Shown piece by piece: positions 2,461-13,462 of a stretch of DNA of 43,655 nt. The notes under the pieces are model-generated. The model was not told where the DNA came from. It saw only the letters and a program-made list of their open reading frames with translations, and ran no database searches. Position numbers and translations under genes: made by a program. The DNA comes from a phage: the NCBI GenBank assembly GCA_029093185.1, contig GCA_029093185.1_4348.1; one strand, 5' to 3'. How positions within the stretch are numbered: the first letter of the stretch is position 1; every line of letters starts with the position of its first letter.

Positions 2461-3087
2461 TTAGCGGCGGCGACGTTCGCGGCGCGGTGCTTCATCTTCT
2501 TCGTCGTCTTCCAGGTCATTGACGCTCGCAGCGACTTTAGAACCGCCGAACGCTTTGCCTTCGCCAACGTATTTAATCGCCAGCAGGTTAACGCCGAGGA
2601 CTTTGTATTTCTGGCTGAACCAGATTTCAACGCTTACGTTAGCTAAGCATCCGCTGTAAACCTGTTCACCTTCAATCTGTTCGCCGTCTACGTTGAAGTC
2701 CTGCTCTACCTGAGTCTCACCTTTTTTAGAGGTTACAATCAGCGGCTGTTTCTGTGCCTTCGCTTTGAAGTAGAAGCCTTCCGGGAAGTCTTCAAACGGA
2801 TTGTCGCGCTCGGCAATGTCTTTAATCGCGCATTTATCCATGTGCTTACCTTCACCGTAGTTGGACTTCATCCATTTCTCGGCAGCGGCTGCGCCTAACG
2901 CTTCTTCAACTACAGCGTAAACGGTGTCGTAGAGTGCATCGATTTGAGCATGGTCAGACGGCAGGATAATAGTCGCGCTGTACTGGCCTTTAGTGATTGA
3001 GCCATCATCGTTTTCACGGTCTTTTTCGCGTTCGAATACGTTAACCCAAGCAGTGTTTACTTTACGCAGATTCAGTTTAATACCCAT
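2461..3087 (-). CDS. DUF2815-like phage ssDNA-binding protein
   Basis: 208 aa; acidic tail DLEDDEEDE then RRERRRR; sits between a Cas4-like nuclease and PolA, the position this family usually occupies. Confidence 0.5.
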   Translation of the reverse strand: MGIKLNLRKVNTAWVNVFEREKDRENDDGSITKGQYSATIILPSDHAQIDALYDTVYAVVEEALGAAAAEKWMKSNYGEGKHMDKCAIKDIAERDNPFEDFPEGFYFKAKAQKQPLIVTSKKGETQVEQDFNVDGEQIEGEQVYSGCLANVSVEIWFSQKYKVLGVNLLAIKYVGEGKAFGGSKVAASVNDLEDDEEDEAPRRERRRR

Positions 3088-3146
3088 CGTGATTTCTCGC
3101 TTTTAAGTTTCGTTTACTCCGGGAAGCTGCCCGGTCAGTGATTAGA

Positions 3147-8915: not shown

Positions 8916-9106
8916 TTTACATTCTCCTTAATCCACGCTTCTACTTTCTCCGGGTCGAACGTACCAGGCTGCCGGCGGCCCATAATACGGATACAACAAT
9001 CCGGGAACTTCCCACTCTTTAACCAGTTATTCAGCGTGCGACGAGTAACCCCGATACGCTCAGCTACCTCATTCTGTGTCATTCTCAAACCCTCATTATC
9101 AGTCAA
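8912..9106 (-). CDS. AlpA/excisionase-like HTH DNA-binding protein
   Basis: 64 aa; LRMTQNEVAERIGVTRRTLNNWLKSGKFP; first gene of the minus-strand operon. Confidence 0.6.
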   Translation of the reverse strand: MTDNEGLRMTQNEVAERIGVTRRTLNNWLKSGKFPDCCIRIMGRRQPGTFDPEKVEAWIKENVK

Positions 9107-9522
9107 CGAAACTTAGTATACATTGCGAATAATGGGAAATCAAACATAATCGCACCTATTGACATTATGAAAATCTTCGTTTAAGGTGCTTTTGTATCTT
9201 AGTTACTTTGATTCCTGTTCACCTTGTAAAACCGCTTAAAACGCAGCTGCGCGCAGCGCAAGCAAAGTGTTAAGCGAAAGTTTACTGAACATAAGAATTA
9301 TCGTAACTTTCCTTCCTAAGTATCTCCGGTTGCCCTGGGCAAGCTCTATTCTCATCGGCAGCATATCTCTTAAGTATCTGATTTTCTTAATGTGCCGTAG
9401 ATTCGCAACCGTAAAAATGTAACGATTATTGGGCAGGCTTAAGCCTGCCCTTTAGCTACCAAGTAATAAGAATAAAGGCACAACCCTCCCCGAAGAATCA
9501 CAACGGCAACGTAACTATTCTC

Positions 9523-9556
9523 TTGCACACCCCAACATAATAGGTTACTATTCACT
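9523..9556 (+). promoter_or_regulatory. Early promoter (TTGCAC-17-TACTAT) with operator palindrome
   Basis: TTGCAC 9523-9528, 17-nt spacer, TACTAT 9546-9551; TAATAG-GTTA-CTATTC overlaps the -10. Confidence 0.55.
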
Positions 9557-9585
9557 TATCGAAACGAGACATAAGGAATTTAGAA

Positions 9586-9804
9586 ATGAACAAAGCGACC
9601 GCAAGCGTAGTTTCCGCAATCAAACAAGTTTACGGCATCGATATTTCAGAGCGCGTAATTATCGGGAACAAACGCAACTTCTTTACGTTCGGCACCGACG
9701 GTATGGATGGAAACGATTTTAACAACGTACAACGTTTCGCTATCGGTAAGGGGCTTCGTAATGAGCCTGCGGGTTACAAGAAATTCGCTATCTACTTTAA
9801 ATAA
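9586..9804 (+). CDS. Hypothetical early protein
   Basis: 72-aa ORF, first gene after the divergent control region; AAGGAA Shine-Dalgarno. Confidence 0.55.
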   Translation: MNKATASVVSAIKQVYGIDISERVIIGNKRNFFTFGTDGMDGNDFNNVQRFAIGKGLRNEPAGYKKFAIYFK

Positions 9805-10927: not shown

Positions 10928-11131
10928 ATGACCAGCATCTTATTTATCTGGGTATTGTCCGCAGGCCAGATGCAACTCGCAGCATCGGAAACGTTTTACT
11001 CGATGGAGGCGTGCCAGTCAGCGGCACGCGCTGCAGAGAACGCGCACTTTCTGTTTCAGGGCGACAAGCCCAACGATTCAGAGGTACGCGCTATCTGCTC
11101 ACCTAAGCGACTTGGTAAACAGGAGAAGTGA
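10928..11131 (+). CDS. Hypothetical protein with N-terminal hydrophobic segment
   Basis: 67 aa; N-terminus ILFIWVLSAGQMQLAA looks like a signal peptide or membrane anchor. Confidence 0.45.
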   Translation: MTSILFIWVLSAGQMQLAASETFYSMEACQSAARAAENAHFLFQGDKPNDSEVRAICSPKRLGKQEK

Positions 11132-11325
11132 TTATGGTACGGTTATATGAAGCACGAGGGACTGAATTAGGGGGCGACGCATTCTACGAAGATTGGGTTG
11201 AGGTTGTTCGGTATGAAGATTACGCGAAACTTGAAGCTGAGTTACAGAAATACAAAGACCAGTACCCTGATTACGTCGAGTGCGCGAACTGCGGGTCGGT
11301 TACACATGTGGAAGGGGTGGAGTAA
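11128..11325 (+). CDS. Hypothetical protein (paralog pair, member 1)
   Basis: 65 aa; YEDYAKLEAELQKYK motif shared with the next gene. Confidence 0.5.
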   Translation: MIMVRLYEARGTELGGDAFYEDWVEVVRYEDYAKLEAELQKYKDQYPDYVECANCGSVTHVEGVE

Positions 11326-11519
11326 TGGTGCAGAGATATGAGGTAAAAGCGTGGGGCCTGCCAGAGCCTGAGATGGCTGAGTACGCATACGGCGATTATG
11401 TAGAATATGACGCTTATCTGAAACTTGAAGCAAAGTTACGTGAATTCGCTAAGCAGGTGCTAGATAGCCCGTGTGACTGGAAGACAAATGAATTAGCGCG
11501 CGAGATTCTTGGAATATGA
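11325..11519 (+). CDS. Hypothetical protein (paralog pair, member 2)
   Basis: ATG 11325 overlaps the upstream stop (TAATG); YDAYLKLEAKLREFAK motif. The ORF track's longer version starts at GTG 11280. Confidence 0.45.
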   Translation: MVQRYEVKAWGLPEPEMAEYAYGDYVEYDAYLKLEAKLREFAKQVLDSPCDWKTNELAREILGI

Positions 11520-11809
11520 GCCTTGCAACTGACATCCTGAAACGAAGCGGCCTTGCGCCGCTGTCACCGAGAGCGAAGACACGTATACACAAGCGTCGCC
11601 GTAACGTGCTGTACCCAGAGATACAAGAACGGCGTAAAGCTATCCGCGCCTGTGGATTCCAGAACGGAAAGGCCGTGAATCTCGGTGAGTTTAAAACAAA
11701 GGAACGCGCAGCTATCGCGAACCGGCTATTTAATTACTGGAAATCGCTGGGGTACGATGATATTCCGACGAAACCACAGAGACGACAATACATCTGGAGA
11801 CATAAATGA
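11516..11809 (+). CDS. Hypothetical basic protein
   Basis: 97 aa, Lys/Arg-rich. Confidence 0.45.
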   Translation: MSLATDILKRSGLAPLSPRAKTRIHKRRRNVLYPEIQERRKAIRACGFQNGKAVNLGEFKTKERAAIANRLFNYWKSLGYDDIPTKPQRRQYIWRHK

Positions 11810-12246
11810 CTACTATCGCGTTTGACGGAAAGACAATGGCCTGTGATACCCGTGTTGTGTGCGGGAGTAACTGTTACAACACAGACACAAAGATATACGA
11901 GAACGAATTTGTTGTTATTGGGGCGGCTGGCGATGCAGGGGTTGGTATCCTTTTAGTGGAGGACGATAGTATTTTAGTGCCTAAGCACTACGATTTTGAT
12001 TTCTCTGCCTTGGTGTGGGTTAAAGACATCGAAACGTTGTGTAGGGTGGAGTTCTATAAATCTTGGGATTGTGCTCTTAGTTTGGTTATTCAGATTGCGG
12101 ACAGCTTTTCCGCCGTTGGTTCAGGCGCCCCTTATGCCCTAGCGGCTATGGAATGTGGGTATTCGGCGCAAGGTGGTGTAGCAGTTGCATCGAAGTTCGA
12201 CCCTGACACCGGCGGCAAGATTATTACCAAACAACTATTAGGATAA
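11806..12246 (+). CDS. HslV/proteasome-beta-like Ntn-hydrolase (putative peptidase)
   Basis: 146 aa starting M-TTIAF; DGKTMACDTR (Asp17 region), TDTKIY (Lys33 position), VIGAAGDAGVG, and AVGSGAPYALAAME resembling the HslV GSGGPYA segment. Confidence 0.5.
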   Translation: MTTIAFDGKTMACDTRVVCGSNCYNTDTKIYENEFVVIGAAGDAGVGILLVEDDSILVPKHYDFDFSALVWVKDIETLCRVEFYKSWDCALSLVIQIADSFSAVGSGAPYALAAMECGYSAQGGVAVASKFDPDTGGKIITKQLLG

Positions 12247-12305: not shown

Positions 12306-12614
12306 TTGGATAAATTTACTGAAACTGTGACGGGGTGGCTTCTCGCTGCCGCACTAGCCGGAGGGGTAATCGGACTAAGGCAACATAAGTCCGCTATTTC
12401 CGGCCCTATCGACGGCTTCTGCTTTATTGCAACTGGCTTCACTTGCGCCGTATTTGGCGCACCTCTCGCAGCTCAATGGTTTGGAATCACGGGCGACCGT
12501 GAAATCGCAGGCCTGGGCTTCATTATCGCTATTCTCTGGATGCCTATCTATTCCCGTCTGTCCGGTATCGTCGCCGGAGAATACATCGCACGTCGAGGAG
12601 GCCCGGATGAATGA
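12306..12614 (+). CDS. Putative holin (three predicted transmembrane segments)
   Basis: 102 aa; three hydrophobic stretches and a charged C-terminus; directly upstream of the endolysin. Confidence 0.5.
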   Translation: MDKFTETVTGWLLAAALAGGVIGLRQHKSAISGPIDGFCFIATGFTCAVFGAPLAAQWFGITGDREIAGLGFIIAILWMPIYSRLSGIVAGEYIARRGGPDE

Positions 12615-12879
12615 GTTATTCTGGTTCTGCGGTATGCTGGCAATCGGAGGCACATCGCTGTTTAATGTGTATCATCCCAGCGTTGACGACGGGCTATTTG
12701 GCCGGGTGCTCTATATCCTGACTGCTATTGTCTGCGCCGCAGGATGTATCCACCTGTTACAGGGCAGCATGTCTCCGACGCTGCCTGAGACATTAATCAC
12801 ATTAGTTGCGCTGCGCCAGATTCGTCAGGCGTGGCTGTCATACGGAGGACATAAGCGTGTCTCGAAACATTTCAGATAA
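12607..12879 (+). CDS. Putative second holin/antiholin membrane protein
   Basis: ATG 12607 overlaps the upstream stop (ATGAATGA); two hydrophobic segments; in frame with the ORF-track entry 12427..12879. Confidence 0.4.
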   Translation: MNELFWFCGMLAIGGTSLFNVYHPSVDDGLFGRVLYILTAIVCAAGCIHLLQGSMSPTLPETLITLVALRQIRQAWLSYGGHKRVSKHFR

Positions 12880-13345
12880 TGGATTGCATTTTACCGCTGC
12901 ATTCGAGGGGTTCCGTGGAACTGCGTATCGTGCTACGCCGAACGAGAAGTACCTTACTATTGGCTACGGAAGCTACGGCCCTCATGTGTATGAAGGGCAG
13001 AAGATTACGAAGGGTCAGGGACTCCTGTTACTGAATCGTGATATGGCTAAGGCCGTAGCTGCGGTTGACGCAGCGGCACACCACTCCCTGACACAGGCAC
13101 AGTTCGATGCAGTGTGCGACCTGGTCTATAACGCTGGTGCTGGTGTGATTGCCGCTGCCACCGGTACGGGTAAGGCACTGCGTTCCGGTGATGTTGCGAC
13201 GCTGCGGGCTAAGCTGGCGTTGTTCATCAACCAGAACGGCAAACCATTACTCGGCCTGCGCCGCCGTACAGCTGGTCGTCTGGCGCTGTTCGACGGTAAA
13301 CCGTGGCAGGAGGCAGAGGCTATCGGGCGCGCGGTGAAAGGTTGA
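12857..13345 (+). CDS. Endolysin, lysozyme-like (GH24/T4-lysozyme-like fold)
   Basis: FEGFRGTAY...TIGYG matches the T4-lysozyme catalytic Glu and TIGIG region; GTG 12857 has a GGAGGA Shine-Dalgarno 7 nt upstream (the ORF track starts it at 12806). Confidence 0.7.
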   Translation: MSRNISDNGLHFTAAFEGFRGTAYRATPNEKYLTIGYGSYGPHVYEGQKITKGQGLLLLNRDMAKAVAAVDAAAHHSLTQAQFDAVCDLVYNAGAGVIAAATGTGKALRSGDVATLRAKLALFINQNGKPLLGLRRRTAGRLALFDGKPWQEAEAIGRAVKG

Positions 13346-13411
13346 CACTTAGGACTAATCAGACGATACTTAAGTCACCTCCTGTTCCACCCCTCTGCTC
13401 TCCAGTTTTAT

Positions 13412-13441
13412 CCCGGCCCTGACCCAGCCGGGATTTTTTTA
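13412..13441 (+). terminator. Rho-independent terminator after the lysis cassette
   Basis: CCCGGC (13412-13417) / GCCGGG (13427-13432) followed by ATTTTTTTA. Confidence 0.6.
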
Positions 13442-13462
13442 TCTATTTTCTGCGATGACTAG

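Follow-up and report, generated by a model that had tools for sequence, protein, structure and literature searches.

The window, meaning the whole 43,655-nt stretch of DNA analyzed here (GenBank assembly GCA_029093185.1), is essentially a complete Kagunavirus-like siphophage genome (Guernseyvirinae) of ~43.7 kb. The 2-kb stretch around the two genes under study matched 298 phage records at 80-95% identity, mostly from Escherichia and Salmonella phages of Guernseyvirinae. For one relative, vB_EcoM_SHAK7693 (OR594180.1; locus L003), the GenBank taxonomy line gives Autographiviridae/Kayfunavirus, though its genome is Kagunavirus-like, and this placement looks like a mis-assignment. Replication-type genes occupy the minus strand of the window up to 8624. 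On the plus strand, a string of small ORFs starts at 9586 and extends, no obvious terminator intervening, to the genes for two holins and an endolysin (12306-13345) and from there to terminase and structural genes. Genes A and B sit within this string, which diverges from the replication genes and runs on into the lysis genes. Immediately past the endolysin gene (13383-13442), weak sub-threshold matches to Rfam sRNA families were also seen (RF02278, 23.7 bits against a gathering score of 50).

Two conserved genes bound the locus. The left boundary gene (10928..11131, plus strand; 67 aa, phrog_3766) is 88-100% identical across 40 IMG/VR loci, and its TGA stop lies 2 nt before the ATG of gene A. 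Gene A (11134..11325, plus strand) encodes a 63-aa protein with a divergent N-terminal module (N-module), a core helix and then a tail QKYKDQYPDYVECANCGSVTHVEGVE, and gene B (11325..11519, plus strand) encodes a 64-aa protein with a canonical N-module, the core helix and a helical tail REFAKQVLDSPCDWKTNELAREILGI. Counted from sequence, the net charges of the two products are about -9 and about -5, respectively. Gene B overlaps the stop of gene A as TAATG and the following gene as ATGA, indicating that A, B and the downstream gene form a translationally coupled chain. The right boundary gene (11516..11809, plus strand; 97 aa, phrog_9632) is conserved and found no match in a Pfam search. Weak matches to PHROGs of HNH endonucleases (E about 0.1-0.2) were obtained for it, and the Jerseyvirus orthologue exceeds it in length, with 123 aa in RA112; the 97-aa protein may represent a free-standing DNA-binding remnant. 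A gene for an HslV-like peptidase (11806-12246 of the window; phrog_1040, E=1e-33; Pfam Proteasome only at E=0.019) immediately precedes the holins; it is present in loci L010, L013 and L019 and missing from L004, L006 and L007.

Both adjacent ORFs of the original prediction are present, and the coordinates of gene B hold. Gene A had been started at GTG 11128; its start is most likely ATG 11134 instead, because a ribosome-binding site (AGGAG, 11121..11125, plus strand; read from sequence) is properly spaced 8 nt upstream of this ATG and because relatives keep 'MVQRY' but not the upstream GTG. The codons upstream of MVQRY vary among relatives, for example ...NRRNNMVQRY in L011 and L026. A start at ATG 11134 makes the product 63 aa long. 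Compared with orthologues in related loci, dN/dS is 0.03-0.15 for the core and tail of gene A and 0.19-0.35 for gene B, supporting that they are real genes; both are protein-coding and under purifying selection. An Rfam search found no family overlapping genes A and B, even at E<=1. A protein 100% identical to the gene A product (P0001) occurs in metagenome contigs, and gene B is 100% identical in phages Bas71 and Bas72.

In a scan for promoters and terminators, the number of predictions hardly differed from that in shuffled sequence, and the result was uninformative on the timing of expression; the label 'early' in the original prediction is putative. The only RNA-seq time course of a Kagunavirus, that of vB_Eco_K1B4, used a Glimmer annotation (PMC12645636). 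The gene table of that study has no gene at 9000-9632, between gene 014 (the homologue of the 67-aa boundary gene) and gene 015, and the family genes were therefore left unquantified.

Similarity between the products of genes A and B

The core thought to be shared by the two proteins was recovered by a direct-repeat search as a 34-nt repeat. Copy 1 (Y27-EDYAKLEAEL; 11212..11245, plus strand) and copy 2 (Y28-DAYLKLEAKL; 11406..11439, plus strand) are 79% identical; they lie 194 nt apart, exactly the length of one gene, and are therefore in register. The core alone gives a Smith-Waterman score of 48 between A and B, which none of 20,000 shuffles reached. For the whole proteins the score is 59, against 25.0±4.9 for shuffled sequences, and again 0 of 20,000 shuffles attained it, so pairwise alignment finds similarity beyond chance; a single BLASTP comparison gave 36% identity over 50 aa (E=2e-4). 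The first ~26 residues alone are marginal (score reached by 1,213 of 20,000 shuffles, p about 0.06). For the tails the score is 10, whereas shuffles average 14.5, and 19,778 of 20,000 shuffles scored as high or higher. Judged by these alignments, homology is confined to the N-terminal ~45 residues and the C-terminal tails are unrelated modules. The common ancestry originally proposed is thus upheld for the N-terminal part and fails beyond the core, and the homology along the full length of both copies that marks a whole-gene tandem duplicate is not seen.

AF2 models, built with family alignments, are of low to moderate confidence (pLDDT 58 for A and 68 for B). In the model of A, a helix is predicted at residues 27-43 and a beta-hairpin at 47-58, the latter bearing C50, C53 and H58, which make the tail a CxxC..H hairpin. 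In that of B, residues 17-27 form a hairpin, and residues 28-47 and 52-62 are helical. In both models the core forms the start of a long amphipathic helix after a hairpin, and the tails differ in predicted fold: A ends in a beta-hairpin, B in a helix, forming a helical hairpin. A Foldseek search of the B model against BFVD and PDB had a single match at E<=0.001, an orthologue with 83% identity, and a PDB sequence profile search gave only noise (serum albumin, E about 0.7).

Copy number and mosaic structure of the slot

To compare the locus among relatives, 50 IMG/VR loci were fetched in a survey anchored on the 67-aa left boundary gene. Both the left 67-aa gene and the right 97-aa gene were found in 44 loci, including the window and two GenBank phages. 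Among these 44, the slot between the two genes is empty of family genes in 13 loci, while about 16 loci have one and about 15 have two. The presence of one or two copies in related phages had been named as a check; both states occur, and so do zero and three. Three tandem family genes are carried by phage NTEC3 (L061, OK539620.1; 806-1529), of which the middle copy (L061 1009-1278, 89 aa), unannotated in GenBank, combines a B-type front, a coiled-coil insert and an A tail. In NTEC3, the 67-aa boundary gene is immediately preceded by a gene for a homing endonuclease. Salmonella Jerseyvirus RA112 has two family genes at the same place. In loci without a family gene (for example L004, L012, L013, L019, L022 and L024), the right boundary gene directly follows the left one, and the ATG of the downstream gene sits exactly where that of the family gene would be, indicating that the insertions and deletions are start-to-start cassettes. 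Locus L010 lacks exactly gene B, and L004 lacks both A and B. Unrelated ORFs also occupy the slot in occasional relatives, namely L014 2707-3009 (101 aa), L026 about 2891-3136 (81 aa) and L052 about 2778-2996 (72 aa), suggesting that the site is a general hot spot for accessory genes beyond the A/B family.

The identity of the window to its relatives changes abruptly along the slot. It is mostly >=90% in the left gene (10930-11139), drops to 23-76% in the loop of the A front (11140-11229; <65% in the first two 30-nt blocks), and returns to mostly >=90% from 11230 through the core, the A tail and the B front. In the middle of the B tail (11440-11499) it falls to 46-70% in most relatives, the flanking blocks being 83-99% identical, and after 11499 it is mostly 80-99%. 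By this pattern, the slot DNA is a block mosaic and not the outcome of gradual divergence. The low-identity stretches are the hypervariable segment of gene A (11140..11229, plus strand), which covers the loop and hairpin of the N-module, and the variable middle of the B tail (11440..11499, plus strand), which exists in two allelic forms, DSPCDWKTNEL and YEPCSKVTEEM. A diversity-generating retroelement was considered for the hypervariable loop and rejected, the variants being discrete alleles of differing lengths with indels and not single-template substitutions.

When homologues were sought, A returned 394 clusters and B 29. The fronts follow the pattern MVQRY(E/D), variable loop, (D/E)G.(Y/W)V.Y.DYAKLEA.L, and are joined to one of several unrelated tails. 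Besides the A tail, QKYKDQFPDYVECANCGSVTHVEGVE, and the B tail, REFA.QV..PC...T.E.AREILGI, at least seven other tails were found, and some members carry a coiled-coil insert of 25-30 residues between core and tail. In several members, an A-type gene (L015, L016, P0010, P0069, and L003 1602-1958) reads through into a Cys/His-rich, zinc-ribbon-like segment (...ECEHVWNRYIVHPHRKICLVCGVKE), which points to a further small ORF or module that may be fused to or separated from the family gene.

Fronts and tails are also found in exchanged combinations. A B-type front is joined to an A-type tail in P0067, P0137 and P0148, and another front to a B-type tail in P0129. In L025, a single fusion gene joins the A tail at 'PDYV|KLELKL' to the core and tail of a B-type gene, which has the structure expected of a product of recombination between neighboring copies, and L030, a further fusion, carries another tail whose final six residues are those that close the A tail. 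Clustering of 188 members gave about 29 front types and about 12 tail types, counts skewed by the use of A and B as seeds for the homologue sets; by the four-gamete test, 30 combinations of a front pair with a tail pair show all four gametes. Despite the biased counts, front/tail reassortment is not in doubt. Exchange takes place both from phage to phage and among adjacent copies, and its breakpoints fall at three conserved stretches: where the gene starts, in the core and where the A tail ends. The A and B forms are both found across Kagunavirus and Jerseyvirus, and they are old alleles. The mosaic also accounts for the split match to phrog_29624: gene A matches it at E=4e-26 with residues 24-63 only, that is, core and tail at profile positions 21-60 of 60, and gene B matches only profile positions 1-43 (E=0.057). 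Gene B matches phrog_37174 at E=0.004.

The strongest of the competing explanations is a simple local tandem duplication, after which each gene diverged over its whole length by point mutation. Genes A and B are adjacent, of equal length and in register, with a common core and a common MV.(R)YE start, all of which would agree with such an event. However, the tails are without similarity, the A and B alleles are common to many other phages at 83-100% identity, and the chimeras, the fusions and the range of 0-3 copies reflect block exchange. Local duplication followed by point divergence, as the original prediction had it, is therefore contradicted as a complete account and unlikely to be the explanation; what is retained of it is the homology and, presumably, a duplication that founded the array. 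An array of recombining cassettes, shaped today mainly by modular recombination at conserved linkers, is the preferred reading.

The N-terminal module in other phages

The front of the family is a module of ~45 aa with the consensus MVxRY(D/E), loop, GDYVxYxDYxxLEA. It opens with a short strand (MVxRY-D/E) and continues through a hypervariable loop and a second hairpin, which ends in G-D-Y/W-V-x-Y, into a helix beginning at x-D-Y-x-x-L-E-A. In B numbering, R4, G23, V26, D30, Y31 and L34 are nearly invariant, and these residues would fit a small beta-beta-alpha unit. Both proteins carry the module start M-[VI]-x-R-[YF]-[DE] at the extreme N-terminus, B as MVQRYE and A as MVRLYE, in which R and L are swapped relative to the module start; relatives of A have MVRKYE or MVQKYE. 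The motif G-[DE]-[YW]-V-x-Y-x-D-Y-x-x-L-E, located 20-35 residues from the start, reads GDYVEYDAYLKLEA in B and EDWVEVVRYEDYAKLEA in A, where the Gly is missing, a 3-residue insertion is present and 'DWVEVVRY' stands against the consensus 'GDYVxY'. A remote HMM was built only from 91 members that are each <45% identical to A or B. It scored B at 55.4 bits and A at 19.7 bits, compared with 13.2 for the best of 10,000 shuffled A/B sequences, and A matches it mainly via the core. On motif and profile evidence, B is a canonical and A a divergent member of the module family.

At E<=1e-3, a profile of the B type matched the representatives of 195 clusters (50% identity), almost always from residue 1 to ~45 of proteins that are 45-306 aa long and have many different C-terminal parts, and P0168, P0205 and P0257 each contain two modules. 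A broader profile recovered 551 clusters at 90% identity, all of them unnamed or 'hypothetical' and essentially none with a Pfam domain. Remote members lie close to replication or lysis genes, among runs of small phage genes that carry no annotation. For A, B, the longer relatives and the neighbors, no match was found in Pfam, NCBIfam or PADLOC, and PADLOC gave none for A, B and three neighboring proteins at E<=1. Sub-threshold matches of one long variant to coiled-coil families were set aside as composition only. Across the searches, the N-module appears as a widespread phage protein domain without a curated Pfam model, occurring at least in Guernseyvirinae, Skatevirus and lambdoid-like phages.

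Proposed function and comparison with known systems

The best explanation of these data is a mosaic family of small acidic accessory proteins in a dispensable Guernseyvirinae slot that may act as binders, and as a whole this account is probable. Its evolutionary and architectural part, a shared N-module with interchangeable tails in a recombining cassette array of 0-3 units, is highly probable. Its functional part, in which the products are non-essential acidic proteins that bind host or competitor proteins in the manner of host take-over or counter-defense factors, is tentative. The proposal of binders is based on the acidity of the proteins, their dispensability (0 to 3 copies), their hypervariability in discrete blocks and the purifying selection on them. 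Searches with A, B and the broader profile found no annotated homologue with a function, the named relatives all being 'hypothetical protein'.

In the proposed mechanism, the array would have been founded by tandem duplication and its diversity kept by homologous recombination at the conserved linkers. The module would be a small beta-beta-alpha scaffold whose amphipathic helix packs or dimerizes and so presents the variable loop and the tail. Loop and tail would confer specificity on this scaffold, and the products, not essential themselves, may bind or inhibit proteins of the host or of competitors. We consider it doubtful, and less likely than the binder function itself, that the shared module is a common scaffold or dimerization handle for combinatorial loops and swappable tails throughout a large collection of host-targeting or counter-defense binders. 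Such a collection would be diversified by intra-array and inter-phage recombination, like polymorphic effector cassettes.

It is very unlikely that A and B are restriction-alleviation proteins of the Lar/Ral type. Lar/Ral (PF14354; phrog_3592) are likewise small accessory proteins of phages or prophages, a single CxxC knuckle is present in A, and some relatives are fused to a Cys/His ribbon-like tail. A weak match of A to PF14354 was obtained (E=0.061, 14 bits), and phrog_3592, described as 'Lar-like', is matched by A (E=0.039) and by the EaE-like protein of LPST10 (E=7e-4). However, the PF14354 score lies far below the Pfam cut-off of 28.6 bits, B has no match, and neither has the ribbon-tailed relative. 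The zinc ribbon of Lar has four ligands and two Cys pairs, whereas A has one CxxC and one His and B has none, and the phrog_3592 match spans the N-module and the coiled coil. In addition, the BASEL Kagunaviruses, including Bas71 and Bas72 with their identical gene B, are highly sensitive to restriction-modification (PMC11990801), which makes an effective anti-restriction role unlikely.

More improbable still is that the repeat is kept for a role of the nucleic acid, as a regulatory RNA or DNA element or a recombination site, with the protein similarity as a by-product. The 34-nt repeat at one-gene spacing and the coincidence of recombination breakpoints with it are consistent with such a role, but dN/dS values of 0.03-0.35, the retention of the amino-acid motif by remote relatives in otherwise dissimilar proteins and the empty Rfam search over genes A and B argue against it. 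That the similarity is a chance or compositional artefact of acidic, helix-rich peptides is hardly credible, since, short as the proteins are and insignificant as their N-terminal 26 residues are when taken alone, the observed alignment score was never reached by shuffling, the independent remote HMM ranks both A and B above all shuffled sequences, and natural chimeras link the two.

The account of recombining, possibly binding accessory proteins has practical consequences. The annotation is corrected by the better start of gene A, by the unannotated NTEC3 copy and by the recognition that these genes are absent from the K1B4 RNA-seq gene set. A compact N-terminal module, not represented by a Pfam model, is defined at the front of hundreds of small phage proteins that are otherwise unrelated. 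With 0 to 3 copies, exact cassette boundaries and an identical gene B in BASEL phages Bas71 and Bas72, the slot is experimentally tractable and a good place to ask about the roles of hypervariable small phage proteins. If the products do bind host or defense targets, the combinatorics of fronts and tails would represent a catalog of specificities.

Among known families, phrog_29624 and phrog_37174 comprise the same small Guernseyvirinae proteins as A and B. Unlike the family as seen here, they are split by tail, do not record the shared N-module and the mosaicism, and have no function attached. The 'eae protein' of LPST10 (Skatevirus) begins with a canonical module, MSEVKRYDISAFGG..DGAYVNYDDYAELEAKC, and P22 EaE has only the core and coiled coil in common (LVLASDYRELEAKCAAL), its own N-terminus being divergent. 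The EaE proteins of lambdoid, P22-like and Skatevirus phages are products of accessory genes with known domain swaps; in phage epsilon34, an EaE N-terminus is reported to be fused to an HNH endonuclease (PMC2629481). Unlike A and B, the EaE proteins measure 150-165 aa and contain a long coiled coil as well as a 'TPATDAFLAE.RAQG' domain at the C-terminus, and the combination that defines the P22 EaE family, the long coiled coil plus the TPATDAFLAE..RAQG domain, is absent from A and B. No function is assigned to P22 eaE in the literature, and in one study a deletion of eaC-eaE, which covers many genes, yielded no viable phage.

Phage mosaicism of this kind is already well known, and the A/B slot is an ordinary variable slot of small accessory genes. 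It is like the mosaic 'moron' or accessory slots of tailed phages in presence/absence variation, in allelic replacement between conserved flanks and in breakpoints at gene boundaries and conserved stretches. Unlike the usual moron slots, it exchanges sub-genic units (front, core and tail) within one tandem paralogous family, and its neighboring copies recombine with each other, as in the L025 fusion.
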